From Candidatus Electrothrix sp. GW3-4 (lineage in GTDB: Bacteria > Desulfobacterota > Desulfobulbia > Desulfobulbales > Desulfobulbaceae), in assembly GCF_037902255.1 (NCBI RefSeq), contig NZ_CP147990.1:2850001-2882000 (forward strand): DNA of 32,000 bases. The letters run 5' to 3'. The notes beneath the pieces were generated by a model, which saw only the letters and a list, made by a program, of their open reading frames with translations, was not told where the DNA came from and did no database searches. Position numbers and translations under genes: made by a program. Shown one piece after another: positions 1-20,527 of this stretch (the stretch's first letter is position 1; each line of letters opens with the position of its first letter).

Positions 1-520
1 ACGCATACAAGTTCATCCCCCCATCCAACCCAATCGGATCAGCAGCAATATACCGTCCGGTCTCAGGATCATAATACCGGTTCCAGTTGTAGTGCAGCCC
101 TGTTTCCGCATCGTAGTACTGCCCCGGAAACCGCAGGTTGTTCTCAATCTGGGAAACAGAAACATTCACCTTCCCGAAGGGCAGATATTCGGCTTTCCAA
201 ACCACGCTGCCTGAATCATCCGTGATGATCTGCGGCGAACCGAGATGATCTGTCACATAATAATACGCTCCCTCGGCTGACTTGTTTTGCAACAGCAGAA
301 GGAAATATATCGCCTGAAGAAAGGCGGTATCCGACGGGGTTGATGTTGCCGCGACCGCAGGGGGATTATCCGCAAGCACCGGCTCCGGGGCCTCCTCCGC
401 TGGCGGTTCGTTGACTGAAACCGTCGCCTCCGATGCAGCATCCGGGGTTTCATACTGAAAATGCGCGAAGATATCCCCTTCCAGGTAGACATACTCTTTC
501 AGGATATTCCCGTCGCTCCC
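1..520 (-). CDS. Orphan Rhs core fragment, module G (partial; its tip and any immunity gene lie beyond the window start)
   Basis: Hand translation of the correct frame reads [173 protein letters not shown]. This frame is absent from the ORF track because it has no start and runs off the window. It is colinear with the 3' core of the main Rhs gene. Homology begins about 18 bp after the ankyrin gene stop. Confidence 0.8.
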
Positions 521-537
521 TTTTATCCCTCAGGTAC

Positions 538-897
538 TCAGGACAACAGTAACATTATATCATCAAAACCTTTTAGAACAGCTAGATCAGTAGCGGATTT
601 TCCAAGTTCATTTTTATAGTTTTTATCAGCTCCATTCTCAAGTAACTTTTTGACGATCTTTGTGTGCCCCTGAGCGACAGCATAATGGAGAGGCAAGTTA
701 TTTAGTTCCCCAATACTATTCACTTCTGCTCCCGCAGTTAATAGAACATCAAATTCTTCATCATCCCCTCTTATGCAAGCAACATGCAACGGTGTATCTC
801 CAGTATGTCCATGCTGGTTAACATCATTTAATGACATATCAATAAACTCTGGTAAGAATTCTTCAATATATCGACTGAGGACATCCTGAGCATTCAT
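538..897 (-). CDS. Ankyrin-repeat protein, candidate immunity protein for the module F tip
   Basis: 119-aa ORF with ankyrin-repeat signatures (GDTPLHVACIRGDDEEFDVLLTAGAEVN, NLPLHYAVAQGHTKIVKKLLENGADKN). AGGAGG lies 8 nt upstream of the ATG. The start is 15 bp after the module F stop. The sequence is visibly AT-rich relative to the Rhs core. Confidence 0.85.
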   Translation of the reverse strand: MNAQDVLSRYIEEFLPEFIDMSLNDVNQHGHTGDTPLHVACIRGDDEEFDVLLTAGAEVNSIGELNNLPLHYAVAQGHTKIVKKLLENGADKNYKNELGKSATDLAVLKGFDDIMLLLS

Positions 898-912
898 TAT
901 TAGTTCCTCCTG

Positions 913-1572
913 TTATTCTCCGCAACAATATCGATTAATCTTATCTTGAAGCTTGTCAATCCCCCTTTGCAAATTATCTATGTCATTCTGATGTCTTCCT
1001 GGCTGCCACTTATCATCCCACGCTTGCCTCATATCACGACAGTCTTTGTTCCGCTGAAGAAGCCACCGCCATTTTTCACATTGGTCTAATCCGCCGGGAG
1101 GACGCTCGTTACATCGAGCTTTATAGCGATCATATTCAGCTTGCCTCGCTTGATCGTTACCAGAAGCATCTCTGTCTTTCACGGCATCATAAGTCTCTTG
1201 TGCCGCTTTTGCTCCCATTGCAGCCATGAGTAGACGACCACCCCATTCAAGCCCTTTAATTACCAAAGCATTCAGTCCCTCTGGATCAACCCCATTAACC
1301 GGATCACTCCCCACATACGCATACAGATTAATCCCGCCACCCAACCCAATCGGATCAGAGGCGATATACCTCCCCGTCTCCGGGCTGTAGTAGCGATTCC
1401 AGTTATAGTGCAGCCCGGTTTCGACGTCGTAATACTGCCCCGGAAAGCGGAGATTATTCTCAATATCTGCAACAGAGATATTCACCTTCCCGAAGGGCAG
1501 ATATTCAGCTTTCCAAACAACGCTGCCGGAGTCATCGGTAATAATCTGCGGGGCACCGAGGTGATCTGTCAC
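913..1572 (-). CDS. Orphan Rhs C-terminal fragment, module F, with a Cys-rich WDDxWxPGRH-type tip (tip approx 913..1272)
   Basis: The ORF reads (V)[28 protein letters not shown]...[41 protein letters not shown] and then a 119-aa tip. The listed start is a GTG inside the core. DNA homology to the main gene continues upstream to about 1685 with a 1-nt indel, so a genuine start is unlikely. Confidence 0.8.
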   Translation of the reverse strand: MTDHLGAPQIITDDSGSVVWKAEYLPFGKVNISVADIENNLRFPGQYYDVETGLHYNWNRYYSPETGRYIASDPIGLGGGINLYAYVGSDPVNGVDPEGLNALVIKGLEWGGRLLMAAMGAKAAQETYDAVKDRDASGNDQARQAEYDRYKARCNERPPGGLDQCEKWRWLLQRNKDCRDMRQAWDDKWQPGRHQNDIDNLQRGIDKLQDKINRYCCGE

Positions 1573-1715
1573 ATAATAATACGCTCCCTCGGCTGCTTTG
1601 TTCTTGAGGAGTAAAAGAAAATATATCGGCTGAAGAAAAGCGGTATCCGAGGGAATTGAGTCGCTGCGACAGCAGGGGGATTAGTAGCAACAATGTATAA
1701 GGAAATTAATGCGTA

Positions 1716-2234
1716 CTAACCGCTCCACTCGACTCCTTGGGTATAAGCTTCCTTGAGAAGGGGATCTTTTTTCCAGTCATTAAAGTATGTTCTTATTTTC
1801 TTATCTTCAAACAAATGTTCAACCACTCCATTGATAATACAGTTCTGCAAACGCCGATCTCCCGTCTTGTATAAATTGCCTACCCACTGTTTAAACTCTT
1901 CTATTTCCTTTATGCGCCTTTCTTTTTCCGACCATAAGTAATTGAACCAGTTGGCAAGATCCCATGCTGCTTCATAGCTCGAATCAGCCCAGTCTCCGTC
2001 AGGATTTTCGAGAAGGCATCTTTCGTAATATGCCATAATAAACGGATGAATATCCTCAAATGTTAATTGAGGCTCAATTCGCTCAGTATATTCTTTTTTA
2101 AGAAGATAACTGCTCACAGCACCTAATATTTCAATATCTTGTGATTCCATCCATCTTTTCACAAGAGTCTGCGAAATAACATGATGCTTAGGCGATTCGG
2201 GCAAGCCAAATTCATTAATGATCTCTTCAAGCAT
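1716..2234 (-). CDS. Hypothetical helical protein, candidate immunity protein for the module E tip
   Basis: 172-aa ORF starting 31 bp after the module E stop, with a GGGGGTG Shine-Dalgarno-like sequence upstream. It is AT-rich. I recognise no family. The immunity call rests on position alone. Confidence 0.65.
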   Translation of the reverse strand: MLEEIINEFGLPESPKHHVISQTLVKRWMESQDIEILGAVSSYLLKKEYTERIEPQLTFEDIHPFIMAYYERCLLENPDGDWADSSYEAAWDLANWFNYLWSEKERRIKEIEEFKQWVGNLYKTGDRRLQNCIINGVVEHLFEDKKIRTYFNDWKKDPLLKEAYTQGVEWSG

Positions 2235-2265
2235 AGGTTACACCCCCATTATTTATCTACAGAAA

Positions 2266-4026
2266 TTACAAGGGAAGTGGTCCGGCTGGGGTTGGAATAA
2301 CTAACGGTACGCCCCCTCCAGCCGGTGTGCCTCTCTCTATGCCTTTCCTTATAGACTTTTCAATCTTTTCAGACAGTTCATTAATTTTTTCACCAATTGA
2401 CCTGTTATCACAATCATCTTGGCATTTTTTATTTCTATAAAACCTCTCACATTTAGCCAAAGATCTCTTTAGCTGAGTAATCTCATCACTATGACGACCT
2501 CCGCCTCTTGGTGCGGGCATATGACGATCCCAGTATTCATGTGATCTGATCATTCGGTTAAGCAACTCTATTTTATTTCTTAGTTGTGGACAAGTATCGT
2601 TCCCTTTACATCCAGTTTTAACTCCCTTGGGGGGATGCCACGGCCCACCATTGCTCGCCAATCCCAATGGATCGACAGCATTCACCGGATCACTCCCCAC
2701 ATACGCATACAAGTTCATCCCACCACCCAGCCCAATCGGATCAGCAGCAATATATCGCCCGGTTTCAGGATCATAATACCGGTTCCAATTATAATGCAGA
2801 CCGGTTTCCGCATCGTAGTACTGCCCCGGAAAACGGAGGTTATTCTCAATCTGCGCAACAGAAATATTCACCTTGCCGAAGGGCAGGTATTCGGCCTGCC
2901 AGACAACGCTGCCTGAATCATCCGTGATGATCTGCGGGGCACCGAGGTGGTCATTGATGTAATAATACGCTCCCTCGGCTGACTTGTTTTGCAACAGCAG
3001 AAGGAAAAAGATAGGCTGAAGAAAGGCGGTATCCGAGGGCATTGATGTTGCCGCCACCGCAGGAGGATTATCCGCAAGCACCGGCTCCGGGATTTCCTCC
3101 GCTGACGGCTCGCTGACCGCGATTGCCTCCTCCGGTACAGCAGCCGGAACCTCATACTGAAAATGGGCAAAGATATCCCCTTCCAGGTAGATGTACTCTT
3201 TGGTGATATTCCCGTCGCTGTCCGCCTCGGCGATGAGTCTGCCGCTCTTGCAGGAGACAAACAGGGTATCTTCCCCGTTCACGGTTTTGACCGTACGCAG
3301 GCCCCGACCGTCATACTGGTAGGCTCCCACAGTGACGCTGTTTTTCGTCACCGATGCCAGTCGCTGATCATCGGTCAGGTCGTAGACCGTGGTTTCCGTG
3401 CTGTCCGTGGCGATATTGCCCGAGGCGTCGTAACCGTAGGCTGCCGCCACCGCCCCGGTGCTTTGGTCGAGCCGGTTGGTTCCGGTGACGTAGGAATAGC
3501 CGGTCACGTCGCTGCTGTCCACAGTACGGCTCAGGCGGTTGCCCGTTCCGTCGTGATCGAAATCAAAGGCTCCGGCGGGCAGGCTTGCCGTATCCAGCTG
3601 GCCGAGATCGTCGTAGCTGTAGGCATGATCGGTTCCGATGGGATCAACAATATCCTGCACCAGACCGTCCGACCAGTAGGTATAGGTTCGTTCATACAAC
3701 CTGCCCGCTGTGATGCCGGAGAGCCGATACAGGCTGTCGAAGCTGCGGGACAGGGTCAGGCCGTTGCCCGTTTCCAGGCTGCTGACCGGGCCGAAGGGTT
3801 TGCTGCTGATATTTTCGGCCAGCAAGCCGGTTTTCCCCTCGTACAGGGACTGCACAGAAGAAAGCTGGCCTGTGGTGTCACGGTTCCAGGTGATCCTGCG
3901 GCCCGAGGGATAGATCATGTATGCGACTTCCCCGTTGCCAGTGTAACCGTATTCAGTGACAAAGATCTGCCCGGCGGTGGTGCGGGTCTCCTTGATCAGC
4001 TCGCCGTGGATGTTGTACAGGTACAC
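2266..4026 (-). CDS. Orphan Rhs fragment, module E (longest orphan, about 1.57 kb of core) with a 130-aa Cys-rich tip (approx 2266..2658)
   Basis: 586-aa ORF colinear with main Rhs residues from SVYLYNI... through YD repeats to ...NLYAYVGSDPVNAVDPLGL. The listed start is an internal GTG. The tip contains HEYWDRH...GGGRHSDEI, distantly resembling the module B and F tips. Confidence 0.85.
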   Translation of the reverse strand: MYLYNIHGELIKETRTTAGQIFVTEYGYTGNGEVAYMIYPSGRRITWNRDTTGQLSSVQSLYEGKTGLLAENISSKPFGPVSSLETGNGLTLSRSFDSLYRLSGITAGRLYERTYTYWSDGLVQDIVDPIGTDHAYSYDDLGQLDTASLPAGAFDFDHDGTGNRLSRTVDSSDVTGYSYVTGTNRLDQSTGAVAAAYGYDASGNIATDSTETTVYDLTDDQRLASVTKNSVTVGAYQYDGRGLRTVKTVNGEDTLFVSCKSGRLIAEADSDGNITKEYIYLEGDIFAHFQYEVPAAVPEEAIAVSEPSAEEIPEPVLADNPPAVAATSMPSDTAFLQPIFFLLLLQNKSAEGAYYYINDHLGAPQIITDDSGSVVWQAEYLPFGKVNISVAQIENNLRFPGQYYDAETGLHYNWNRYYDPETGRYIAADPIGLGGGMNLYAYVGSDPVNAVDPLGLASNGGPWHPPKGVKTGCKGNDTCPQLRNKIELLNRMIRSHEYWDRHMPAPRGGGRHSDEITQLKRSLAKCERFYRNKKCQDDCDNRSIGEKINELSEKIEKSIRKGIERGTPAGGGVPLVIPTPAGPLPL

Positions 4027-4228
4027 TGACCCCCGCCCGAGGCGTCGGTCATGGAGGTCAGGCGGCCTTTCTGCTCTGTTCCCTCCACGGTTTCATCGTA
4101 GCCGTAACTCACCAGGGTCGAACCGTTATTGCGTTTGATCTCGGTCAGCCGATTCAGGGCATCGTATTCGTAGGTCAGGGTGATGCCACCCGCATCTTCC
4201 CTGGTTTTCAGTAGGTCGTTGGGCAGAT
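4027..4228 (-). pseudogene. Frameshifted upstream continuation of the module E Rhs core
   Basis: The DNA aligns with main-gene 14160..14345 (NDLLKT...GRLTSMTDASGG). Module E reads ggcgggggtcagtgtacctg where the main gene reads ggcggttcggtgtacctg. This 2-nt length difference breaks the frame near 4027-4035. Homology stops exactly at the stop codon of the 4229..4591 ORF. Confidence 0.75.
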
Positions 4229-4591
4229 TTAAGGGTGCAGCCCCCAGCGGTGGCTATTCGGCAAACACTCTTCACATAATTGTTGTCCTCGATAATCTCC
4301 ACCATCAAGCACGGCTAATTCAAAATCACACGCACTATCACCTCCCCCAAAACCAGTTGGATTTCTGTCTCTATTGATCATAACATTTCCGCATGACTCA
4401 CAGTTACATATGGAAAACTTCTTTAACCCATAGTAGCCAGTACAGGATTCAGCCAAATGCACATCATACTTTTTAAGCAATAGCCTCATTTCCTCATCTA
4501 ACTTTTCATCAAGACTACCAGAGTTAGTAGTACAGGAGTCTGTAAAATAATAGGTTAGCGTTTTTTTTATGGCAATCTGCTTCACGAACAC
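4229..4591 (-). CDS. Cys-rich small protein (zinc-ribbon-like CNCESC ... CEEC), candidate immunity protein for the module D tip
   Basis: 120-aa ORF starting about 50 bp after the module D stop. It has a GTG start, with a second GTG 6 nt downstream that is better spaced from GGAGA. Cys pairs are C-x-C-x2-C and C-x2-C. The assignment is positional only. Confidence 0.55.
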   Translation of the reverse strand: MFVKQIAIKKTLTYYFTDSCTTNSGSLDEKLDEEMRLLLKKYDVHLAESCTGYYGLKKFSICNCESCGNVMINRDRNPTGFGGGDSACDFELAVLDGGDYRGQQLCEECLPNSHRWGLHP

Positions 4592-4640
4592 TCTCCAGAG
4601 AAGTTTTTATCACAACGATCAAGTCTGTCCGACAACTTGG

Positions 4641-5675
4641 TTATTTTCTTTTTGTCCCGTCTCTATCAGTACAACGGCATGGTTGGTGCTTTGGTTTTGC
4701 GCCTAATTTTTCAGCCGCCAACTTTTTTGCTATTTTCTTAGCTCGATTACAATTATTCGCTGTAACAGTCTCGGTTACACTGAGAACGCCACTAATAGGA
4801 ACTGGATTATTCTTCATATTTCCATCATAATCCGCACGACAGGTACAAGTACATCCACATCTATTTCGCTTTGGGTAACTTAACTCAGCCAAATCAAATG
4901 TCGTTGGCTGGGACGGTGCTTCTGGACTCGGTAATTCAATCATTATTGGCGAATTGGACGGGGCAATGATAGGAGGTGGTGGAACTGGAATTGGAATAGG
5001 AAATTGCAATCCCATTGGATCCACCCCATTAACCGGATCCCCACCCACATACGCATACAGATTCATCCCCCCACCCAACCCGATAGGATCAGCAGCAATA
5101 TATCGCCCGGTCTCGGGATCATAATACCGGTTCCAGTTGTAGTGCAGCCCTGTTTCCGCATCGTAGTACTGCCCCGGAAACCGCAGGTTGTTCTCAATCT
5201 GGGAAACAGAAATATTCACCTTGCCGAAGGGCAGATACTCCGCCCGCCAGACCACGGTGCCGGAATCGTTCGTGATGATCTGCGGAGCACCGAGGTGATT
5301 ATTGATGTAGTAATATGCGCCTTCCGCCGATTTGTTCTTCAACAGGAGAAGGAAGTAAATCGGCTGAAGAAAGGCGGTATCCGACGGGGTTGATGTTGCC
5401 GCCACCACAGGAGGATTATCCGCAATCATCGGCTCCGGGGCTGTCTCCTGCGATGGTTCGGCAGAAGGAGCAGCTTCAAGCGACGCAGCAACCGGAACCT
5501 CGTACTGAAAATGAACGAAGATATCTCCTTCCAGGTAGATGTACTCTTTGGTGATATTGCCGTCGCTGTCGGCCTCAGCGATGAGCTTACCGCTCTTGCA
5601 GGAGACAAACAGGGTATCTTCCCCGTTCACGGTCTTGACCGTGCGCAGGCCCCGGCCGTAGTAAGGGAGCCACAA
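4641..5675 (-). CDS. Orphan Rhs C-terminal fragment, module D, with a 121-aa Pro-rich/CxCxCxC tip (approx 4641..5006)
   Basis: The ORF starts at a TTG and reads ...GRGLRTVKTVNGEDTLFVSCKSGKLIAEADSDGNITKEY... to ...[19 protein letters not shown]. The tip reads QFPIPIPVPPPP...RCGCTCTCRADYDGN...KHQPCRCTDRDG. Confidence 0.8.
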   Translation of the reverse strand: MWLPYYGRGLRTVKTVNGEDTLFVSCKSGKLIAEADSDGNITKEYIYLEGDIFVHFQYEVPVAASLEAAPSAEPSQETAPEPMIADNPPVVAATSTPSDTAFLQPIYFLLLLKNKSAEGAYYYINNHLGAPQIITNDSGTVVWRAEYLPFGKVNISVSQIENNLRFPGQYYDAETGLHYNWNRYYDPETGRYIAADPIGLGGGMNLYAYVGGDPVNGVDPMGLQFPIPIPVPPPPIIAPSNSPIMIELPSPEAPSQPTTFDLAELSYPKRNRCGCTCTCRADYDGNMKNNPVPISGVLSVTETVTANNCNRAKKIAKKLAAEKLGAKPKHQPCRCTDRDGTKRK

Positions 5676-5855
5676 GAAAATAAACTACCAACCTGCGGCG
5701 TCAATATTAACATCCCATTTGAGCAATTTTTTGACTTCCCGTCTTATGAGCGTTACCCCTTTCTCATAGTTCAATAGTGAACTGGTACTTTATTTATTTG
5801 TGAATCCCTAACTGTAGGTTGCCGCCACTGCTCAGGTACTTTGGTCGAGTCTGCC

Positions 5856-5882
5856 AAATCAATCAAGTTTGACCCTATTGAT
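5856..5882. repeat. Cassette junction motif, copy 3 (AAATCAATCAAGTTTGACCCTATTGAT)
   Basis: 27-nt motif with ATCAAT...ATTGAT inverted arms. It abuts the Sel1 gene stop codon (5883) and is followed by a short remnant of the RLDQST core region. The motif also occurs at 8758..8784 and 10439..10465. Confidence 0.8.
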
Positions 5883-6347
5883 TTATAGGTCACTCAAAGT
5901 AACAAGCAATAATTTAGCTTCATCGACAGACTCTTCATACATATTGTCATGTTCAATAGCTATTCGTAAATATTTCCTCACTGTCTCAACTTCTTTGTCA
6001 GATACCATATAAAGTTTAGCGAGTTGCAGGGCTGCCTCGCCATTCCCTGCTGCCAAAGATTTTTCAAACCAATATTTAGCTTTTTTGATATCCCCCAACG
6101 CCCTATAGGTAACAGCTAAGTTCAACAACGAAGTAAAAGAACCTGCTTCTACAGCTTTCTTATCCCACTCAATAGACGTCTCAATATCTACATCAACACC
6201 ATCACCGCTATAGTACATTAAGGCAATTCTCGACATAGAGGAATCATCGCCCATTCTTGCAGCTTTATTGAACAGCTCAAATGCCTTTACATAATCACCT
6301 TCATCATAAGCTTTGTCCGCTTCAATAAATAGATCGTCACAATTCAT
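5883..6347 (-). CDS. Sel1-like (SLR/TPR) repeat protein, candidate immunity protein for the module C tip
   Basis: 154-aa ORF with Sel1-type repeats (KAFELFNKAARMGDDSSMSRIALMYYSGDGVDVD, IEWDKKAVEAGS, AKYWFEKSLAAGNGEAALQLAKLY). It starts 42 bp after the module C stop. Confidence 0.85.
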   Translation of the reverse strand: MNCDDLFIEADKAYDEGDYVKAFELFNKAARMGDDSSMSRIALMYYSGDGVDVDIETSIEWDKKAVEAGSFTSLLNLAVTYRALGDIKKAKYWFEKSLAAGNGEAALQLAKLYMVSDKEVETVRKYLRIAIEHDNMYEESVDEAKLLLVTLSDL

Positions 6348-6389
6348 ATCGTTTGCGAATAACTGTTAAATTTATGGAACCTAATATAA

Positions 6390-7097
6390 TTAGGGAGTTG
6401 CAAGTGCAGCACCTAGTCCGATTGGCCCTCCCAAGTAAGTCAGTACACAGATTTTACCGACCCGGTACACAACATAACCCGTTCCAAGTAATGCGGCTGT
6501 TTTAGCCACGGTCTGGCAATCATCACCACACATCTTTGCTGATTCTGGCTCCCACTTGTTAGTATCATCATTCCAACCTTCTGGTTTTGCAACTTCTTTA
6601 TCTTTTCCGTTTTTATCTTTACATATTAGTTTGTTTGGCTTAGTTGGATGAGACTTACAATGTTTATAGGGATTACTTGTATTCTTGCCTGAACCACTGC
6701 CATCCCCCTTGTTTCCTTTACGAGCTGCGCCAGTAGGGTCATACCAGTTCACCGGATCACCACCCACATACGCATACAGATTCATCCCCCCACCCAACCC
6801 GATAGGATCAGCAGCAATATAGCGCCCGGTCTCGGGATCATAATACCGGTTCCAATTATAATGCAGCCCGGTCTCAGCATCGAAATACTGCCCCGGAAAG
6901 CGGAGGTTATTCTCAATATCCGCCGTCAGGATATTTACCTTCCCGAAGGGCAGATATTCCGCCTGTCAGACCACGCTGCCTGAATCATCCGTGATGATCT
7001 GCGGCGCACCAAGATGATCGGTGATATAGTAATATCCACCCTTGGCAAACTTATCATTCAGCAGGAGAAGCAGATAAATTGCAGGCAGAAAGGTGGG
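6390..7097 (-). pseudogene. Orphan Rhs C-terminal fragment, module C, with an in-frame TGA; 112-aa tip ending in a glycine-zipper-like hydrophobic tail (tip approx 6390..6728)
   Basis: Hand translation reads [54 protein letters not shown]... All other copies have TGG (W) where this copy has TGA at 6966..6968. The ORF track only picks up 6390..6797. Homology begins directly after the stop of the 7098..7544 ORF. Confidence 0.8.
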
Positions 7098-7544
7098 TTA
7101 TCGCGCTGCACTCTTATGGTGCATTTTCTCTAATTCGATTATGTTTCGATACTTTTTCCTAAAATCACCATATATATCTATATCAGCATCATAATAGCTT
7201 TGATTGCTGGCAACATATCTTACCGAACTGATTAGCTCTCCAATTACAGAAAGAATAGTTTCAGGTTCATTTTTTAGTTTTTCTTCAATTAAAAGAAGAT
7301 AGCAACTCGCACCATCAGCATCATTTTCTGACAAATCAGACTGAATATAATGTGCAAATGAAAAAATATAATATTGAAAAGGTACTGCTGGCATAAAGCG
7401 CAGTTCGTCAGCCATTTCGATAGAATTATCTCGATATTCATCTAAGAAATCATCGAATTTCCTACCTGCAAATCTTTCGTGCGCAGAACTCTTATCCAAG
7501 TCACTCTTCCATTCGCCCCAGTCTTCTTCCTTTGGAATATTCAT
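7098..7544 (-). CDS. Hypothetical acidic protein, candidate immunity protein for the module B tip
   Basis: 148-aa ORF with an ATG 28 bp after the module B stop. It is AT-rich. I recognise no family. Confidence 0.65.
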   Translation of the reverse strand: MNIPKEEDWGEWKSDLDKSSAHERFAGRKFDDFLDEYRDNSIEMADELRFMPAVPFQYYIFSFAHYIQSDLSENDADGASCYLLLIEEKLKNEPETILSVIGELISSVRYVASNQSYYDADIDIYGDFRKKYRNIIELEKMHHKSAAR

Positions 7545-7572
7545 TTATTATACCGAATAAAAAGATAGTTAA

Positions 7573-12502: not shown

Positions 12503-15500
12503 TTAAATAGCTGTCCAAGAATAGGGGTCCATTATAGTATCTCTATCCCAGTTCTTTTCTTTTGCAGGCCCAAAAGTTGCGATTGGATCTCGCATATCCA
12601 TATCACCAACAGTTTGTATCGCTTCTACAATTGCAAGCTGTATATTAGCCAGTTGAGCATTCATCGGAGAATTTTCAGCCCCATCCATTTTATTTCCTTT
12701 GCAGCTTACATAGCAATGCATATATAAATCATTATACCCATTCCCAAAAACTTCCCCCACAGCTTTAATCATGGCAACATTTTCACCAGTCAAATCGACT
12801 CCATTAACCGGATCACTCCCAACATAAGCATACAGATTCATCCCCCCACTTAATCCAATAGGATCAGCAGCAATATACCGCCCGGTTTCAGGATCATAAT
12901 ACCGATTCCAGTTGTAATGCAGCCCGGTTTCCGCATCGTAGTACTGCCCCGGAAAACGGAGATTGTTTTCAATCTGTGCAACAGATATATTCACGTTGCC
13001 GAAGGGCAGATACTCAGCCTGCCAAACCACTGATCCCGAATCATCGGTAATAATTTGCGGCGCACCGAGGTGGTCGTTGATATAGTAGTAGGCCCCCTCA
13101 GCTGCTTTGTTCTTCAGGAGTAAAAGAAAATATATCGGCTGAAGGAAGGCTGTATCCGAGGGAATTGATGCCGCCGCAACGACAGGAGAAGATGTCGTTT
13201 GTTTCTCCAAAACCGGCTCAGGAACAACCTCCTGCGATGGTTCGGCAGAGGGAGCAGCTGCAAGCGGTGCAGCAGCCGGGGTTTCATACTGAAAATGGGC
13301 GAAGATATCCCCTTCCAGGTAGATGTACTCTTTCAGGATATTGCCGTCACTGTCGGACTCGGCAATGAGTTTGCCGCTCTTGCAGGAGACAAACAGGGTG
13401 TCTTCCCCGTTCACGGTCTTGACCGTACGCAGCCCCCGACCGTCATACTGGTAGGCTCCTGCTGTGACTCCGCCCTTGGTCACCGAGGCCAGCCGTTGGT
13501 CATCGGTGAGGTCGTAGACCGTGGTGTCTATACTATCCGTGGCGATATTGCCCGAGGCATCATAGCCGTAGGATGCTGGCACGGACCCGGTGCTCTGATC
13601 GAGCCGGTTGGTTCCGGTGACGTAGGAATAGCCGGTCACGTCGCTGCTGTCCACAGTACGGCTCAGGCGGTTGCCCGTTCCGTCGTGATCGAAATCAAAG
13701 GCTCCGGCGGGCAGGCTTGCCGTATCCAGCTGGCCGAGATCGTCGTAGCTGTAGGCATGATCGGTTCCGATGGGATCAACAATATCCTGCACCAGCCCGT
13801 CCGACCAGTAGGTATAGGTTCGTTCATACAACCCGCCCGCTGTGATGCCGGAAAGCCGATACAGGCTGTCAAAACTACGGGACAGAGTCAAGCCGTTGCC
13901 CGCGACCAGGCTCTTGACAGGCCCGAAGGGTTCACTGCTCATGTTATCAGCCAGGAAGCCATTCTTCCCATCATACAGGGATGCTATAGAAGAAAGCTGC
14001 CCCGCTGTATTACGATTCCAGGTGATCTTCCGCTGCGAGGGATAAATAATATACTTAACTTCCCCATTGCCGGTATAGCCGTATTCGGTGATAAAGATCT
14101 TCCCGGCAGTAGTCCGGGTTTCCTTGCTCAGCTCGCCGTAGATATTATACAGGTACACCGAACCGCCCGAGGCATCGGTCATGGAGGTCAGGCGGCCTTT
14201 CTGCTCTGTTCCCTCCACGGTTTCATCGTAGCCGTAGCTCACCAAGGTCGTGCCGTTATTGCGTTTGATCTCGGTCAGCCGATTCAGGGCGTCGTATTCA
14301 TAGGTCAGGGTGATGTTGTCCGCATCCTGCCGGGTTTTCAGCAGGTCATTGGGCAGATAGGTGTAAAAGGTCCAGCCGCTGTCCGGGCTGTACCGGCTTG
14401 TCCGACGACCGAAATCATCGTACTCAAACTCGGTCTCCACGCCCCCGCTGTCCGTAACCGAGGTCCGGTTGTCATGCGCATCGTAGCTGAAGATCGTGTT
14501 CGGCACAGCAGAACCGGGATCAGTGATGCCGGTTAATCGGTTCAGCTCGTCATATCCGTAGCCCGTGGTCAGGACTGTGGCCGACCCGGCTTCCCGCATT
14601 ATTTTCCGCTCTGATAGATTACCTGCTGCGTCATAGAGCAGCTCTTCCGCCGGCAGGGTTTCAGTGGTGTCGATATCGTTCCAGGTCTTCCAGTTCCGTC
14701 CTGCGCTGTCCGCAGCATAATGGAGGGCCGCTGTCAGGGTATCCTCGCTATCATAGACCTCTTTGTCCTGAAGATTCCCAGCAGCATCCCAGGTCAGCTT
14801 GCGGTAGTTACCCTGATTATCGGTCACGCTCTTCAGCCTGCCCGAGGGCCAGTATGCATACTCCAGACGACGCTCGTCCGGCAGTTCCACGACCTGTAAC
14901 ACTCCGGCATCGTCGTAGATATAAGAGACCGTTCGATCACCGACAGTCCGGGCGATCAACTGCCCTTGATCATTATAATCCAGCACGGTCTCGGTCAGAT
15001 TGGGATCAATGATCTTTTCCGCCTTGCGCAGGCCGTTGTAGTCCTGATACTCAATAACCTGATCAAGGGTATTCGTCACCTTGTAAAGCATACCCCGGTT
15101 ATTGCCGTAGGCCGCACTGTCCGGGTAATACTCGTAGAGCAGGGTGTCATTCACATCGGTTCGCGGTCCGTCAACCGCCTCCAACCTACCCAAGGAATCG
15201 TAATCATAATCGGTTGTCCGGGTAATCGAGGTTGTTCCGTTGTAGCCCTCTTCTGTTTTCGTGTCCGGATTACCGTTGGCGTCATATGTCCAGGTGGTGA
15301 CGCTCTGCTGCCCCGAATTCGCCACAGAATCGTGGGTCACGGTATGTACCCGGTCGGTGCCGGTATAATAGGCAGTGATCACAGTACGCTCAATTGCACT
15401 GCCCAATGCTTTGGTCACGGCAGTTCGATTGCCTGCATCATCATAACCGTATCCGGTGACATTGCCCCGCCCGTCGGTCAGCTCCTCGGGCTGATTCCGA

Positions 15501-16507
15501 TCAGTATACGTATAACTCCCGCTGTCTCCTGATCCGCCGCAGACGGCACAGCCCGATCCGGTGAAGGAATCGATGCGGGCCACCCCATGCTGCACACCCA
15601 GCTGATAGACAGTGCTGTTACCGAGCGCATCGGTGACGGTCCGCTCCATCCCGTTGTAGACAATGGTGATCCCTTCGCTGCCATTGGCCTGATAGGCGTT
15701 CTCCACCCGGTCGGAGCTGTCATAGACCACGGACATGATCTGCACGCCCTCCTCATCAATAACCGACGTCAGGTTATGGGGATCATTGCTGTCTTCATAC
15801 TTGTATTCACGAAAGGCGGTACTTCCCGGTCGATACACCTTCCACAAGTTACTGCCGCTGTATTGAAAGGTGAAATCGCCGACAGGTGTGGTCAGGGTTT
15901 CCAGATACCCGGAGGCATTATAGGCAAAGGAAAAGGAACGGCCAAAGCTGTCAGACACGGATTGAAGCTGATCGCCACTGTAGGTGAAGGTACGGGTATA
16001 GCCGTTTGGCTCCTGAATTTGGGTCAGCTTGCCCTGGGCGTCATAGGTATGGACAGTACCGTCTTGTTTGGTCAGAGTATAGTCACCGCTGGTCTCCAGG
16101 GTGATGGTCGTCTTTTTGCCCGCCGGACTGCTCCAGACGCCCTCGCTGTCTTTGGTATGCGGAATATGCCGCCCGGTGGACAGTACCCGGCCGATTGAAG
16201 CATCATCACCCGGATCAATCAACAGATGTTCCCCGAACGACCACGACCAGCCATATCCCAATACGGATTCCCCGGTGCTCCGGCTGTTGTACACCCGCCC
16301 AAAGGCCATCGGCCCGGTCGGCCCGGCTATGCTCACGTCGGTCTCTGAATGTACCTTATTGCCGATGGCGAAGTTCACACTGTGAGATGAAATGTATGGT
16401 TGCGTGGATGAGGCGTAAACAGCTTCGGTGCAAAGCAGAAAGAGCAGGAAAAGAAGAGCTGAAGTAAATAAACCGGACTGCAAAAAAAAATGTCGTCGTT
16501 TTATCAT
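12503..16507 (-). CDS. Full-length Rhs/YD-repeat polymorphic toxin with N-terminal signal peptide and 93-aa C-terminal tip (tip approx 12506..12784)
   Basis: 1334 aa. The N-terminus is MIKRRHFFLQSGLFTSALLFLLFLLCTEAVYA/SS. A DUF6531-like segment follows (VNFAIGNKVHSETDVSI...RVYNSRS...GYGWSWSF), then many YD repeats (YxYDxxGNL/R type). The Rhs core end reads YYYINDHLGAPQ...[58 protein letters not shown], followed by a short unrelated tip. Confidence 0.95.
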   Translation of the reverse strand: MIKRRHFFLQSGLFTSALLFLLFLLCTEAVYASSTQPYISSHSVNFAIGNKVHSETDVSIAGPTGPMAFGRVYNSRSTGESVLGYGWSWSFGEHLLIDPGDDASIGRVLSTGRHIPHTKDSEGVWSSPAGKKTTITLETSGDYTLTKQDGTVHTYDAQGKLTQIQEPNGYTRTFTYSGDQLQSVSDSFGRSFSFAYNASGYLETLTTPVGDFTFQYSGSNLWKVYRPGSTAFREYKYEDSNDPHNLTSVIDEEGVQIMSVVYDSSDRVENAYQANGSEGITIVYNGMERTVTDALGNSTVYQLGVQHGVARIDSFTGSGCAVCGGSGDSGSYTYTDRNQPEELTDGRGNVTGYGYDDAGNRTAVTKALGSAIERTVITAYYTGTDRVHTVTHDSVANSGQQSVTTWTYDANGNPDTKTEEGYNGTTSITRTTDYDYDSLGRLEAVDGPRTDVNDTLLYEYYPDSAAYGNNRGMLYKVTNTLDQVIEYQDYNGLRKAEKIIDPNLTETVLDYNDQGQLIARTVGDRTVSYIYDDAGVLQVVELPDERRLEYAYWPSGRLKSVTDNQGNYRKLTWDAAGNLQDKEVYDSEDTLTAALHYAADSAGRNWKTWNDIDTTETLPAEELLYDAAGNLSERKIMREAGSATVLTTGYGYDELNRLTGITDPGSAVPNTIFSYDAHDNRTSVTDSGGVETEFEYDDFGRRTSRYSPDSGWTFYTYLPNDLLKTRQDADNITLTYEYDALNRLTEIKRNNGTTLVSYGYDETVEGTEQKGRLTSMTDASGGSVYLYNIYGELSKETRTTAGKIFITEYGYTGNGEVKYIIYPSQRKITWNRNTAGQLSSIASLYDGKNGFLADNMSSEPFGPVKSLVAGNGLTLSRSFDSLYRLSGITAGGLYERTYTYWSDGLVQDIVDPIGTDHAYSYDDLGQLDTASLPAGAFDFDHDGTGNRLSRTVDSSDVTGYSYVTGTNRLDQSTGSVPASYGYDASGNIATDSIDTTVYDLTDDQRLASVTKGGVTAGAYQYDGRGLRTVKTVNGEDTLFVSCKSGKLIAESDSDGNILKEYIYLEGDIFAHFQYETPAAAPLAAAPSAEPSQEVVPEPVLEKQTTSSPVVAAASIPSDTAFLQPIYFLLLLKNKAAEGAYYYINDHLGAPQIITDDSGSVVWQAEYLPFGNVNISVAQIENNLRFPGQYYDAETGLHYNWNRYYDPETGRYIAADPIGLSGGMNLYAYVGSDPVNGVDLTGENVAMIKAVGEVFGNGYNDLYMHCYVSCKGNKMDGAENSPMNAQLANIQLAIVEAIQTVGDMDMRDPIATFGPAKEKNWDRDTIMDPYSWTAI

Positions 16508-16564
16508 GATGATACCGAACGGATGGATTTTGTTCAGCGAAAGAAAAGGAAAAACGAGCGCGAA

Positions 16565-17023
16565 TTATTCTTCGCAGGGAAGACCGAGGTTGTTTGCGTC
16601 AATAAGCGGCACTGGGCAGGGAGATGTGTCTCCCTCGGAACGCTGTTCGCCGTTACAGTAAAGATGGGCTGTATAATAAGAACCATCTGTTTCATAAGAA
16701 AATAGCCCCCCTGTCATAACTCGACAGTAGCCTGTTACTTCTGTCGAGATCAGGATAATGACTCGCACCTTATCATCAATATACGTGCCATTTATTGTGG
16801 ACTGTTCACATGCATGGTCCAGGGCATCAAATGCTCCATATGTATATTCACCATAGTATGGAGTTGGAGGATCATCTTCGTTGTAAAGCGAGTAAAAATC
16901 TGAGGTATCGCCGTCGACTTTCCAATAGAGTTCTCCCTGCGGCTCAGCCGATAAGGAAGAAACAGGAAAAGCAAGCAACATAACCAGAGCAGATGCGGTC
17001 AGGGCGAGTTTTAAGGCATGCAT
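16565..17023 (-). CDS. Small secreted protein of unknown function, immediately upstream of rhs and probably co-transcribed with it
   Basis: 152 aa with signal peptide MHALKLALTASALVMLLAFPVSSLSA/EPQ and several Cys. There is a 57-bp gap to the rhs start on the same strand. Confidence 0.7.
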   Translation of the reverse strand: MHALKLALTASALVMLLAFPVSSLSAEPQGELYWKVDGDTSDFYSLYNEDDPPTPYYGEYTYGAFDALDHACEQSTINGTYIDDKVRVIILISTEVTGYCRVMTGGLFSYETDGSYYTAHLYCNGEQRSEGDTSPCPVPLIDANNLGLPCEE

Positions 17024-17326
17024 GATTAACGATAGGGAAATGTGTTGTTATCTTGGTTTCATCTTCCACATAGAGATATCGGAAAATTTAGCCTACCCTA
17101 TCTGCCGAAAAGGCACAATAGGTATATCTACCCATTTTTTCATAGGTATATACACCTACACATCGACCTAATTTGATCACCGAGGCGAATAAAAAACATG
17201 ACAATCTTTTCATCTTCCCTCCCCCTATCCCGTCATCTTCCCCAGCTACACTGAAAACAGAAGGAAGAACGGAGAACGAATAAGACGCATCACAACAGAT
17301 CCATCGCCCCCCCCAAGGAGGGAACC

Positions 17327-18631
17327 ATGAAAACAACAGATTCCTCTTCACGAAAAAAAACCATCGCGACCATCCTGCTGATCCTTTGCAGCCTTGGAGG
17401 CGTGCCTACCTTGCTCCCGTTCGGTCCGGCAAGCAGCGCAGCAGCAGGGACCGGCACCGGCGCCCTACCAGCCGTCTACATGCTCCTCCTCAATAAAACA
17501 ATAGAGGAAACACCCCTCACCTACCCCATCGTTGACACCGGCGTGACCGACTTCTATAGCAACAACGCCATCATCTCAGCACCAGCCGAGGGCGAAATCT
17601 TCTACGGTCAGGATGGGCACTACAACGGCAATCAGCCTACCTACACCGATAATGGCGACGGCACAGTGAGCGATAAGGTGACCGGTCTGATGTGGCAACA
17701 GGATATGGGCGAACAGCTGACCTGGTCAGAGGCCAATGCCCTGGCTGACAACTCGGAGCTGGCTGGTTATACCGACTGGCGGCTCCCCACCATCAAGGAG
17801 CTCTACTCCCTGATCCTCTTTACCGGCGCCAATGGAGATGGCGTAAATGAAGAGACCTATACCCTCTACCTGGATAACGAATACTTTCTCCAGCCCTTTG
17901 GCGATACCAGCAACGGCCAGCGCCTGATTGATGCCCAGACCTGGTCTGGAACCGAATATGTCGGCACCACCATGAACGGCGATGCCACGGTGTTTGGGGT
18001 GAATTTTATCGACGGCAGGATCAAGGGATATCCCAAGTACGAACCAGGAACCCAGCAGGAACGAAAGGCCTATTTTCGCCTGGTCAGGGGCAATACCGAG
18101 TATGGGAAGAACAGCTTTATTGATAATGGAGACGGGACCATCTCCGATCTGGCAACCGGTCTGATGTGGCAGCAGGCGGATGAGGGGCTTGCCCTGGATT
18201 GGCAGGATGCCCTGGCATATGCGGAGGATCTGGAGGTCGCTGGCTATACAGATTGGCGCCTGCCCAATGCCAAGGAGCTACAGAGCATTGTTGACTATAC
18301 CCGCTCGCCCCAGACCACGGCGTCACCAGCCATTGATCCGCTCTTTTCCACCACCGAGATCAGCGACCCTGACGGTAATTCGCAGTATCCCTATTTCTGG
18401 ACAGGGACCAACCATCAGGACGGGATCAATCACTATGACAGCGCGGTCTACATTGCCTTTGGCGAGGCCCAGGGGATGATGAACGGGATACTCCTGGATG
18501 TGCATGGGGCAGGGGCCCAACGCAGTGACCCGAAAACAGGGGACCCTAACAACTACCCGCAATACTTCGGGCCCCAGGGGGATCTGCGTTATGTCTTCAA
18601 CTATGTCCGTTGCGTGCGCAGCATAGAGTAA
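17327..18631 (+). CDS. Secreted DUF1566 / Lcl C-terminal-domain protein (two domain copies)
   Basis: AAGGAGG lies 6 nt upstream of the ATG, and the N-terminus is signal-peptide-like. The signature occurs twice: TGLMWQQD...LAGYTDWRLPTIKELYSL and TGLMWQQA...VAGYTDWRLPNAKELQSI. Confidence 0.85.
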   Translation: MKTTDSSSRKKTIATILLILCSLGGVPTLLPFGPASSAAAGTGTGALPAVYMLLLNKTIEETPLTYPIVDTGVTDFYSNNAIISAPAEGEIFYGQDGHYNGNQPTYTDNGDGTVSDKVTGLMWQQDMGEQLTWSEANALADNSELAGYTDWRLPTIKELYSLILFTGANGDGVNEETYTLYLDNEYFLQPFGDTSNGQRLIDAQTWSGTEYVGTTMNGDATVFGVNFIDGRIKGYPKYEPGTQQERKAYFRLVRGNTEYGKNSFIDNGDGTISDLATGLMWQQADEGLALDWQDALAYAEDLEVAGYTDWRLPNAKELQSIVDYTRSPQTTASPAIDPLFSTTEISDPDGNSQYPYFWTGTNHQDGINHYDSAVYIAFGEAQGMMNGILLDVHGAGAQRSDPKTGDPNNYPQYFGPQGDLRYVFNYVRCVRSIE

Positions 18632-18661: not shown

Positions 18662-20527
18662 CTACTCGAAAGTCTTTTGCACCGCCTTCTGGAGCTGGGT
18701 GGCCGTATAGTAGTCACTCTTATAGACCTGCTTACCCTCTCCATCCAGGACAACCAGGAGGGGAATGGTCAGGCTGCCCACCTCCTTGAGCTTGGCCTTG
18801 CCCTCAGGGTTATTGCCCGTGATATCCACCTTCATAGGCAAGACCCGTTCATCACTGAGAAGGCCGATAATCCTGGGAGTATTCAGGACTCCCTTTTCCA
18901 GCACTTTACAGTTCAGACACCACTCTGCGGTAAAGAGCATCACAACGGTTTTACGTCCTTCCTGGGCCAGCTCAAGGCGCTGCGGTGTATAAGAGATCCA
19001 GTCAATGGGGCCGGTACGGGTCAGACGACATGCTCCAAAAACAGAGGCCAGCATAATAAGCACCCCGATCCCGGCAAAAAAAGATTTCATCTTCCGCTCG
19101 GCTGCAATCTGCCAGGTTCGCCAGGCAGTCCAGCCACCTGCACAAAAGCCAAAAAACATAACTGGCCACCAGTAAAGCTTCCCAGGTGGATCCGCAGGGG
19201 AAGACAGCAAAACCTCCACCCCGATTCCAACAAAATAGGCAGCAGCAGCCAACATGAACAGCCCCATAACCTGTTTCACCAGCACGCTGGCAGGTCCGGT
19301 CTTCGGCATCTTACTGACCAAATGGGGGGAGACAGAGAGGAGAAAATAGGGTAAGGCCATACCAATACCTATGGAGGCAAAGACGGCCAGGGTAGAGCTG
19401 GGTGGCTGGGTGGCGGCCCAGGCAGCGGCCGCTCCCATAAAAGGTGCGGTACAGGGGGTGGAAAGGACAGCAGCCAGGATCCCTAACCCGAATGAGCCCT
19501 TCAAGGTATCCTGCTCTGGATGAATCATATAGACGAAAGACGGTAACTGAAGAGAGAAAAAGTCAAACATCCCCCCGGCCATAATAGCGATAATCAGCCC
19601 TACCGTGATCGTAAAAAGAGGGTACTGAAACAGCTGATTCGTGGCACTGAAACCACTGACCAAGGCGATCAGAGCACCAAGGCCGAGCCAGAACACCAAG
19701 ACCCCCAAGGACATAAACACCCCGAGCAGAATGCACTGCCGCCGATTCTTGGCCGCATAGGACAGGCTGATAATCTTGATAGGAATCAAGGGGAGCACGC
19801 AGGGGGTAAAGTTGAGCAGCATACCACCAAAGGCGGCAATGATCAGCAACAAGACCACCCCGCCAAAGGAAGAGCTATCAACAGAAAAATCCCAACCAAA
19901 CATGCCAAAGGAGATTTCCTCGGAGACCTCTGGGACAAGTCCGGGTTCATAGCCTGCAAAAAGCTCCTGATTGATCTTCTCAACCACAGTATCTGCAGTA
20001 ACAACTGATATGCTTGTCTCAATGTCTCTTTTTTCCGGGAGCAGGCAATACTCTTCTGAACAGGGCTGATACTGCACCTGCAGGCTCAAACCTGCCTGCT
20101 CACCAGCTGGTGTAGTCTCTTCCAAACGGACAGGGAGATAAACAACGGTCTCCCCCTGAAAAGACATCACTTGGTCAGCAAGATACGGCACTTTCAAAGA
20201 GACAGCCGCAGGATAGATGGGTGCTTCAATCTTAAGCCCCTTACCTGCTCCAGTCACTGTGACCTTGGTGGGAAAGAGCTTCAGATCTTCTACCGGGATA
20301 ATCTGCCGTTCATCCGCATTGATATGAAACCCTTTCTTCACCTGCAAGACAACGGCAAGGATAGCCTGATCACCGGGATGAGTCGCAGTAACAGACCAAG
20401 TCGCCCGTACCTCGACGGCTTTTTCCGTCGAGGAGGCCTTGGCTACCGATCTGCAATCCCGACCGGGCATGAACAGGAGTACTAGAGCGAGCAGTAAGGA
20501 GGAGAATATTTTTTTGCTATCCAACAT
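18662..20527 (-). CDS. dsbD: Thiol:disulfide interchange protein, DsbD family
   Basis: The central CcdA-type TM core has FTPCVLPLIP and STPCTAPF, and the C-terminal thioredoxin domain has WCLNCK. The ORF-track start at 20764 adds 79 implausible residues. The ATG at 20527 gives MLDSKKIFSSLLLALVLLFMPG, which is signal-like. Confidence 0.85.
   Translation of the reverse strand: MLDSKKIFSSLLLALVLLFMPGRDCRSVAKASSTEKAVEVRATWSVTATHPGDQAILAVVLQVKKGFHINADERQIIPVEDLKLFPTKVTVTGAGKGLKIEAPIYPAAVSLKVPYLADQVMSFQGETVVYLPVRLEETTPAGEQAGLSLQVQYQPCSEEYCLLPEKRDIETSISVVTADTVVEKINQELFAGYEPGLVPEVSEEISFGMFGWDFSVDSSSFGGVVLLLIIAAFGGMLLNFTPCVLPLIPIKIISLSYAAKNRRQCILLGVFMSLGVLVFWLGLGALIALVSGFSATNQLFQYPLFTITVGLIIAIMAGGMFDFFSLQLPSFVYMIHPEQDTLKGSFGLGILAAVLSTPCTAPFMGAAAAWAATQPPSSTLAVFASIGIGMALPYFLLSVSPHLVSKMPKTGPASVLVKQVMGLFMLAAAAYFVGIGVEVLLSSPADPPGKLYWWPVMFFGFCAGGWTAWRTWQIAAERKMKSFFAGIGVLIMLASVFGACRLTRTGPIDWISYTPQRLELAQEGRKTVVMLFTAEWCLNCKVLEKGVLNTPRIIGLLSDERVLPMKVDITGNNPEGKAKLKEVGSLTIPLLVVLDGEGKQVYKSDYYTATQLQKAVQKTFE

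Follow-up and report, generated by a model that had tools for sequence, protein, structure and literature searches.

The locus described here raises the question of how a bacterial chromosome comes to hold a long gene of the Rhs polymorphic-toxin type followed by a series of partial copies that each end differently, and what such a series might do. The DNA analysed (the window, that is, the entire stretch of 32,000 nt) comes from Candidatus Electrothrix sp. GW3-4 (NZ_CP147990.1, 2,850,001-2,882,000; forward-strand numbering), and the comparison set consisted of contigs from metagenomes and metagenome-assembled genomes (MAGs), denoted L###, and metagenomic protein homologues, denoted P####. The answer that we favor, with good confidence, is that the window contains a chromosomal Rhs polymorphic-toxin locus of the Desulfobulbaceae that arose through successive rounds of C-terminal displacement and the accretion of cassettes. 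Under this model, the Rhs shell (signal peptide, DUF6531, YD repeats and RHS core) would encapsulate and deliver whichever C-terminal toxin domain (hereafter, tip) is fused to it, and the tip would be released by self-cleavage at the DPxGL boundary, in line with established Rhs biology. The orphans, at least seven 3'-core fragments without promoters and starts of their own, each fused to an alternative toxin and an immunity gene, would constitute a reservoir of tips that homologous recombination within the common core could transfer to the main gene, and the immunity genes would guard against the same toxins coming from neighbors.

Every rhs feature of the window resides on the minus strand. 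The main gene, the longest open reading frame (ORF; 1334 aa), is followed by seven further copies of the 3' part of its core; the parts of the main gene and of the orphans, with the extent of each core copy in blastn, are as follows.

12503..16507, minus strand: main rhs ORF, with signal peptide, DUF6531, YD/RHS repeats and RHS-associated core
about 16409-16507, minus strand: Sec-type N-terminal signal peptide of main rhs, read from the translation as MIKRRHFFLQSGLFTSALLFLLFLLCTEAVYA followed by SS
12538-12781, minus strand: first part of the main toxin tip, the main core ending near 12782
12503-12537, minus strand: terminal 11 codons and stop codon of the main ORF, derived from an insertion sequence (IS)
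9243..10436, minus strand: orphan A; core 9621-10436 entering at RLDQ/STG, tip 9243-9620 (blastn core 9634-10434, 0.80 kb)
7573..8757, minus strand: orphan B; core 7939-8757 entering at RLDQST, tip 7573-7938 (blastn core 7951-8756, 0.81 kb)
6390..7091, minus strand: orphan C; core 6726-7091, tip 6390-6725 (blastn core 6748-7042, 0.30 kb)
4641..5852, minus strand: orphan D; RLDQST remnant 5831-5852, filler, core 5007-5675 from GRGLRTV, tip 4641-5006 (blastn core 5019-5659, 0.64 kb)
2266..4228, minus strand: orphan E; core 2659-4228, tip 2266-2658 (blastn core 2671-4228, 1.56 kb)
913..1680, minus strand: orphan F; core 1273-1680 entering at IPSDTAF, tip 913-1272 (blastn core 1285-1676, 0.39 kb)
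1..517, minus strand: orphan G; enters at SDGNILKEY and is truncated at NLYA, where the window ends (blastn core 3-517)

The main protein displays both the shell repeats and the bounded RHS-associated core by which Rhs/YD-repeat polymorphic toxins are recognized: Pfam RHS_repeat (PF05593, 8e-55, in five stretches), DUF6531 (4e-16) and RHS (PF03527, 9e-13), and NCBIfam TIGR01643 (8e-40) and TIGR03696, the RHS-associated core (5e-26). In a blastn comparison of the main gene with the rest of the window, the extra core copies (0.3-1.56 kb) showed 78-85% nucleotide identity to it, with E-values between 5e-77 and 0. Their entry points, derived from tblastn and frame translations, are LPNDLLKTR for E, RLDQST for A and B, GRGLRTV for D, SDGNILKEY for G, IPSDTAF for F and FLPAIY for C, and both the eight-copy array and the entry points that had been proposed from inspection of the letters alone (the sequence-only reading) were reproduced in this way. 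All eight copies contain the motif DPIGLxGGxNLYAYVGxDPVN, with the exception of G beyond NLYA. The common boundary suggested in that reading, NLYAYVG(S/G)DPVNxVDPxGL, is kept in the form xVDPxGL in B, D, E and F, and appears as the variants VDLTGE, VDLEGL and WYDPTGA in the main gene, A and C, respectively. The array extends past position 1 of the window, where orphan G is cut; an exact 46-mer of the window end does not occur in the metagenome contigs searched, and look-ups with exact proteins led only to a contig of 1.2 kb.

Beyond the boundary, the copies carry differing tips, and each visible tip is followed, 9-49 nt after its stop codon, by a small ORF, in agreement with the spacing of roughly 10-50 bp noticed earlier. 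The higher AT content ascribed to these parts is likewise borne out, with a GC fraction of 0.38-0.47 in the tips and 0.35-0.41 in the small ORFs compared with 0.50-0.57 in the cores and 0.50 in the flank. Taken as a whole, the locus has the features of an orphan array, namely same-strand, 5'-truncated rhs fragments downstream of a main gene (seven here), differing tips, immunity genes of their own and deviant base composition, with the qualification that tips B and F belong to one family with different partners. The core itself includes a hypervariable Pro/Ala/Glu-rich linker (13110-13310 in the main gene, with equivalents in A, B, D, E and G) that shows 54-67% nucleotide identity between the main gene and E, lies next to a hydrophobic stretch, FLQPIYFLLLLKNK, and is unusual for an Rhs shell.

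Repeats of this kind invite the suspicion that they were collapsed or chimerically joined in assembly, and the short-read MAG assemblies of relatives indeed break at such repeats. However, the copies are mutually 78-92% identical, and their synonymous differences are specific to the copy; an entry point, tip and neighbor of its own distinguishes each; and cassettes are found independently on SRA-derived contigs (the small ORF of orphan F on L081, and the ORFs of orphans B and F as P0041 and P0042), which renders an artefact extremely improbable. In the last 94 core codons, the main gene and E differ by 38 synonymous and 3 non-synonymous changes, and A and G by 16 and 4, respectively. Because the differences are mostly synonymous, the fragments seem to have diverged as parts of functional genes, and the core copies appear to be neither recent in situ duplicates nor products of assembly.

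Superimposed on this divergence are tracts of complete identity. The longest, 197 nt, is shared by the main gene (13599-13795) and E (approximately 3470-3670) and is flanked by 100-nt windows of 71-90% identity; shorter ones connect A with G (119 nt), B with E (105 nt) and A with D (100 nt). Such tracts can be read as direct signs that the copies, the main gene included, have undergone gene conversion or recombination with one another; the tracts seen involve the core, with tip replacement itself not among them. The main/E tract, which looks like a recent gene conversion and a possible recombination hot spot, stops at RLDQST, the point from which A, B and D start.

A 27-nt palindrome, ATCAAYAGGRTCRRACTTRATTGATTT, is found at exactly this RLDQST boundary, on the 5' edges of orphans A, B and D; three matches are present in the window and zero are expected.

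10439..10465, minus strand: palindrome at the 5' edge of orphan A
8758..8784, minus strand: palindrome at the 5' edge of orphan B
5856..5882, minus strand: palindrome at the 5' edge of orphan D

The same palindrome is found in other rhs loci (L007, L048, L051, L002 and, twice between cassettes, L080 from a Gallionellaceae MAG) and, more generally, in at least 120 metagenome stretches. Because inverted pairs of it flank Y1_Tnp (IS200-like) genes (PF01797, E 1.8e-14) in L083, L091, L092 and L162, it is identified as a repetitive extragenic palindromic (REP) element, of generic nature, of a REP-associated tyrosine transposase (RAYT)/Y1 system. A RAYT is encoded in 33 of 120 palindrome loci and rhs in only 4 of the 120; no RAYT gene is present within the window. 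The possibility that the palindrome is a site-specific recombination site for cassettes was considered and rejected, given the inverted pairs around RAYT genes and the rarity of rhs among its loci. On the simplest reading, a unit consisting of the REP, the core from RLDQST, a tip and an immunity gene would have arisen once and spread by in-register recombination, whereas C, E, F and G would owe their boundaries to independent illegitimate joins. In the Electrothrix lineage, REPs often lie at gene-fragment junctions: in L002 (Ca. Electrothrix marina), at approximately 1700-1862, a REP adjoins an apparent internal dnaK fragment, and in L007 a REP is located between an orphan rhs core fragment and a truncated higB/gp49-like gene.

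The small ORFs are candidate immunity genes for the tips that they follow. Designated by the preceding tip, they are the following.

10473..10976, minus strand: I_main, 167 aa, two N-terminal transmembrane (TM) helices, good Shine-Dalgarno site AAGAGGA
8805..9221, minus strand: I_A, 138 aa, predicted lipoprotein with lipobox ...LFSSC
7098..7544, minus strand: I_B, 148 aa, soluble
5883..6347, minus strand: I_C, 154 aa, Sel1/TPR protein (Pfam Sel1, 4e-14)
4229..4591, minus strand: I_D, 120 aa, Cys-rich, soluble, no family match
1716..2234, minus strand: I_E, 172 aa, soluble (Pfam DUF7674, 8.5e-8), assigned by position only
538..897, minus strand: I_F, 119 aa, ankyrin-repeat protein (Pfam Ank, 1e-16), strong Shine-Dalgarno site AGGAGGA

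No Pfam family was found for I_main, I_A, I_B and I_D, and the PHROGs collection yielded nothing for these four, for I_E or for the product of the gene upstream of rhs (up152, see below). Five of the seven tip/ORF pairs recur jointly in unrelated metagenomic contigs.

main/I_main: in L207, L208 and L209, directly downstream of main-type tips that are intact, partner 40-54% identical
A/I_A: after an SAA-tipped Rhs in L036 (Spongiibacteraceae), partner 34% identical over 77 aa
B/I_B: directly after the B-like tip P0035 in L202, partner 61% identical
C/I_C: after a C-like tip in L022 (Alphaproteobacteria), partner 41% identical
F/I_F: F-like tips of L019 (Methylobacter), L203-L205 and L206 precede ankyrin proteins, partner 38-47% identical

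This recurrence supports the assignment of the small ORFs as cognate immunity partners of the main, A, B, C and F tips, which they would neutralize. Hydrophobic N-termini are limited to I_main, with its two TM helices, and I_A, with its lipobox, whereas I_B to I_F are soluble and have no signal sequences. From this difference in partner hydropathy and localization, we infer that the main tip and tip A act in the envelope and that tips B to F act in or from the cytoplasm. The sequence-only reading had taken the abundance of cysteines in several tips as a hint of envelope-side activity; this stands for the main tip and A but not for B to F, the partners of which are soluble proteins of the ankyrin, Sel1/TPR, DUF7674 and other types.

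The identity of the tips themselves could be resolved to different degrees. Tip A is matched by the SAA profile over essentially its full length (PF00277, E 1e-25; score 90.5 bits, cut-off 30.8; positions 3-102 of the 102 in the profile) and keeps all invariant columns of a 28-sequence alignment, among them ANTIGADKYFHCMANCQA (KYFHCMANCQA), RE and DRAANRQGR, with the active-site positions of the sNxxGR motif in H4; furthermore, SAA is present in all 32 of its detectable relatives, several of which have it on RHS cores. It is accordingly assigned to the prok-SAA domain of the SAW clade of the Lipocone superfamily, a predicted toxin type already described computationally in 2025, when prok-SAA was placed among the polymorphic-toxin tips of this superfamily and the sNxxGR motif was defined (Burroughs, Nicastro & Aravind, eLife 2025, PMC12419801). 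Lipocone toxins are predicted, by analogy to TelC, to attack the head groups of lipids or lipid carriers, and their immunity proteins are TM proteins or lipoproteins that act outside the cytoplasm (PMC12419801). Considering TelC and the lipoprotein nature of I_A, tip A can be predicted to be an enzyme that acts on lipid or lipid-carrier head groups outside the cytoplasm.

Homology is evident between tips B and F (47% identity, E 1.6e-32), which match no Pfam or NCBIfam model (the NCBIfam search was empty for every tip). Their family is defined by the motif RC..PPxGL..C..CRDxRQxWDDxWxPGRH..C, in which four Cys (C56, C67, C80 and C118), the W (W91), the P-G (P93 and G94) and the H (H96) are invariant (...RC..PPxGL..C...C...W..PG(R)H...C), and the AlphaFold (AF2) model of the domain is a three-helix bundle, with a predicted local distance difference test (pLDDT) score of 85, for which the PDB provided no neighbor. 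In a HMMER search with a B/F profile that also covered the adjoining end of the Rhs core, nearly all of the best 150 cluster representatives listed match via the tip domain; the matches listed include a PAAR-like Rhs (P0069), adhesin-like Rhs proteins of 2.5-4.5 kaa and the B and F orphans of the window themselves, recovered as the two ORFs mentioned above. Tip E is probably a distant member of the same family (hhalign probability 64%, E 6e-5, 61 columns that include the GRH motif). Because I_B-type and I_F-type partners recur separately with B-like and F-like tips, the B/F family appears to comprise two subtypes with unrelated partners, the 148-aa I_B and the ankyrin-repeat I_F.

Tip C consists of a Lys-rich linker and a Gly-rich hydrophobic C-terminus; the similarity to Tox-WTIP (PF15654) is below threshold (23.9 bits, cut-off 25; 41 of 79 profile positions) and consists in this Gly-rich hydrophobic end, so that tip C could be described as a near-threshold, Tox-WTIP-like membrane peptide. 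A homologue is encoded in L022. Tip D combines a Pro-rich linker with a CGCTCxCRAD...KPKH..CRC domain that belongs to no annotated family; homologous tips are encoded in L055 and, as part of a full-length Rhs, in L207. The earlier view that each tip is unrelated to its neighbor thus holds insofar as the tips differ from cassette to cassette, but has to be modified for the homologous B and F and for E, their probable distant relative; nor are all the tips unrecognizable, A being identified and C matched at near-threshold level.

For the main tip, only two relatives were detectable. A resemblance to the SAA H4 motif is seen in its D..SNxAG..C..C segment, and hhalign against the SAA family aligned this segment only (E 0.009, probability 4%), which is too weak for homology with SAA to be claimed. 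The AF2 model is helical, with five main helices and a low pLDDT of 61; Foldseek found nothing in the PDB, and the family profile produced only chance ribosomal matches among PDB sequences. An IS3-family element sits inside this tip, so that the main gene now encodes a truncated toxin.

11087..12537, minus strand: IS3-family element, 1451 nt, inside the main toxin tip directly after ...NWDRD
12135-12476, minus strand: IS orfA (Pfam HTH_Tnp_1)
11306-11998, minus strand: IS orfB (Pfam HTH_21, rve, rve_3)
10986..11086, minus strand: displaced 3' end of the main toxin tip, ending ...MPSNMAGYECAKDCEQSCEDCCSKYAGGKYVK and a stop codon

The element has the hallmarks of its family: two overlapping ORFs with an A-run slippery site between them (near 12140-12150), termini that form inverted repeats (CTATAATGGACCCC and GGGGTCCACTTTA) and a 3-bp target duplication, ATA, on either side (12538-12540 and 11084-11086). 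The right inverted repeat is present twice because the right-terminal approximately 105 nt of the element are tandemly doubled (11087-11191 and 11195-11299, 91% identical). In alignment with P0001 (75% identity) and P0002 (62% identity), intact homologues that are continuous across the junction, the displaced 3' part joins the upstream half exactly. The DNA of L207 aligns to both halves with a 3-nt overlap, the displaced end being 90% identical to its positions 5314-5401, and in silico removal of the IS and one ATA restores a frame that reads ...DRDMPSN... and is colinear with the intact homologues and L207. The main rhs, which the sequence-only reading had called full-length, is therefore currently devoid of the most conserved, Cys-rich 32 residues of its toxin, so that an intact C-terminal toxin with a cognate immunity gene existed in the pre-insertion state and is lacking in the gene as it stands. 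The insertion probably leaves the deployed main toxin inactive in this genome.

An alternative is that the locus is an immunity island in decay: the IS would have disarmed the delivery gene, the orphan toxins would be remnants, and selection would keep only the seven immunity genes, as protection against the toxins of neighboring strains. Consistent with such a fate, besides the IS in the main tip, the core of C contains an in-frame TGA (6966-6968), in the core of E the frame is shifted by +2 at a G-run near 4032, and in D approximately 165 nt of unrelated filler lie between the RLDQST remnant and GRGLRTV. All seven small ORFs are intact, some with good Shine-Dalgarno sites, and in Snodgrassella alvi, orphan immunity genes without toxins are maintained (PMC5727410). 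However, seven of the seven visible tip ORFs are open to their stop codons and full length relative to homologues, whereas the defects sit in upstream parts of the core that are replaceable by recombination; the 197-nt tract common to the main gene and E speaks of recent exchange, and the IS, with its perfect 3-bp duplication, looks recent and may be polymorphic in the population. On balance, decay of the locus as a whole seems unlikely.

The sequence-only reading had proposed a silent toxin arsenal combined with a standing immunity set. A different challenge concerns the presumed silence of the orphans, which might instead be translated from internal starts as intracellular modules resembling toxin-antitoxin systems, or be transcribed by read-through. 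Their long open frames include in-frame ATG and GTG codons (for example, the ATG at 8565 in B and the GTG at 4026 in E), and there are precedents in what has reportedly been proposed for orphan Rhs of Salmonella (PMC7043789) and in the read-through of Snodgrassella orphans (PMC5727410). Yet none of these possible internal starts has a Shine-Dalgarno-like sequence ahead of it, and promoter-like sites do not exceed the shuffled expectation; the promoter and terminator scans of positions 1-17400, which gave fewer sites than shuffled controls, carry no statistical weight, and nothing is inferred from them. In addition, a prok-SAA tip made without a signal would not reach the periplasm, where its lipoprotein partner is expected. 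Translation of the orphans in this manner is thus highly unlikely. An Rfam search produced no match at the gathering threshold.

For accretion by C-terminal displacement, already recognized in the sequence-only reading, the comparative evidence is supportive, although several observations weigh against parts of it. The broken main tip, the stop codon in C and the frameshift in E show that the locus is partly in decay. Moreover, the exact runs that B, C, D, F and G share with the main gene reach no more than 35 nt against the background of 78-85% identity; homologous recombination would therefore be an inefficient way to re-arm the main gene from any orphan but E (197 nt) and A (62 nt), which would be the realistic donors. 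Elsewhere, D-type tips precede another conserved protein, of approximately 90-110 aa and 45% identical between L207 and L055 (L207 403-3810; L055 901-1956), that has no counterpart in the window, and E is paired with I_E by position only. Finally, no T6SS (type VI secretion system), PAAR, VgrG or other export-partner genes are found in the window, and the genes present there do not explain the onward route of a Sec-exported Rhs from the periplasm of a diderm to a target cell.

The last of these points touches on delivery. Within the window, the main protein lacks the marks of a T6SS effector, that is, an N-terminal PAAR or PAAR-like domain and an adjacent vgrG or EagR/DUF1795 gene, and shows DUF6531 and RHS only; a Sec-type signal peptide directly precedes DUF6531, at the position where P0069 has its PAAR-like domain. 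A far-reaching interpretation would combine a T6SS-independent, Sec-routed Rhs of cable bacteria, with the SAA and main tips acting in the periplasm shared along the filament for kin discrimination or cell policing, with the B/F/E domain (PPxGL...WDDKWxPGRH) as an undescribed, widespread toxin superfamily that has at least two unrelated immunity families. We consider this combination decidedly unlikely. In the literature searched, no paper links cable bacteria or Electrothrix with Rhs, and no antagonism between filaments is described.

The rhs loci most similar to this one are those of Candidatus Electrothrix MAGs, namely L001 (79% amino acid identity over the whole protein), L002 and L007 (Ca. 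E. marina), and of a Desulfobulbaceae MAG, L011 (89%); orphan fragments are also borne by related, short MAG contigs of Electrothrix and Desulfobulbaceae. The gene immediately upstream of rhs, up152, may encode an accessory factor of rhs and has homologues in the same position in L001 (83% identity) and L011 (39%; tblastn). It is listed here with the remaining neighbors.

16565..17023, minus strand: up152, 152-aa secreted, Cys-containing protein, no Pfam match
17327-18631, plus strand: Lcl_C-domain protein
18662-20764, minus strand: DsbD-type thiol:disulfide interchange protein
21183-22172: LysR regulator
22245-28255, minus strand: two tandem multi-PAS hybrid sensor kinases, 769 and 1234 aa
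28665-30434: prolyl-tRNA synthetase (ProRS)

The location of the Lcl_C and DsbD genes beside a locus of Cys-rich toxins may be a coincidence, and this upstream context is not kept in L001. The LysR regulator, the sensor kinases and ProRS represent ordinary chromosomal context unrelated to the rhs array.

How the locus compares with known systems can be summarized from its architecture outward. C-terminal displacement of rhs in enterobacteria was reportedly worked out by Jackson and colleagues in 2009 and Koskiniemi and colleagues in 2014. In enterobacterial rhs loci, a full-length gene is followed by orphans on the same strand, and recombination in the core has been proposed as the means of exchange (Poole et al., 2011, PMC3150448). 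The array of Electrothrix resembles these in that 5'-truncated fragments share the 3' core up to DPxGL and have distinct low-GC tips with adjacent immunity genes. It differs in its host, a member of the Desulfobulbaceae near cable bacteria; in the Sec signal peptide that takes the place of a PAAR/VgrG-linked N-terminus, without T6SS genes in the window; in the presence of at least seven orphans in one array, the IS-inactivated main tip and the REP palindromes at three cassette boundaries; and in the divergence of the cores, which at 78-85% identity is much greater than in the Salmonella case. The S. alvi Rhs loci, which comprise long series of truncated toxin fragments with strictly linked immunity and have been read as products of C-terminal displacement (Steele et al., 2017, PMC5727410), are similar in the serial arrangement of truncated rhs toxin fragments and linked immunity genes, but are T6SS-associated, with many orphans transcribed and toxic, whereas the present array is known from its sequence alone.

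At the level of individual tips, tip A agrees with the prok-SAA tips of the Lipocone superfamily in the KYFH..., RE and sNxxGR motifs, in its C-terminal position on an Rhs core and in the lipoprotein encoded next to it, as the rule given for these toxins demands (PMC12419801); it differs in being an orphan that does not reside on a delivery gene. The mechanistic template for tip A is TelC, which comes from a different Lipocone family and is likened here by description only. TelC is a lipid II phosphatase of Streptococcus intermedius from the prok-TelC family that is delivered by a type VII secretion system (T7SS) in a monoderm and acts outside the cytoplasm. To our knowledge, it is the only characterized Lipocone toxin, and we know of no prok-SAA toxin that has been characterized experimentally. 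As regards export, the nearest parallel is WapA of Gram-positive bacteria, a Sec-dependent YD/Rhs toxin anchored in the monoderm wall. The main protein shares with WapA the signal peptide, the YD repeats, a polymorphic C-terminal toxin and an adjacent immunity gene, with no T6SS seen; unlike in the case of WapA, the host is a diderm, in which a Sec-exported Rhs would reach the periplasm first.

Measured against these systems, the architecture is conventional, indeed of the textbook kind, and the locus leaves the understanding of Rhs systems unchanged. New are the host lineage, by which large orphan arrays are extended to Desulfobulbaceae near cable bacteria, the presence of at least eight tips in one array, the IS and REP details, and a putative toxin family, unannotated and widespread, that appears to be present three times with two immunity types. 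The locus also supplies natural toxin/immunity pairs, namely the prok-SAA tip with its lipoprotein and the two B/F subtypes with their differing partners, and it brings together, at a single site, what shapes arrays of this type: an armed tip knocked out by an IS, gene-conversion tracts and REPs at cassette borders.

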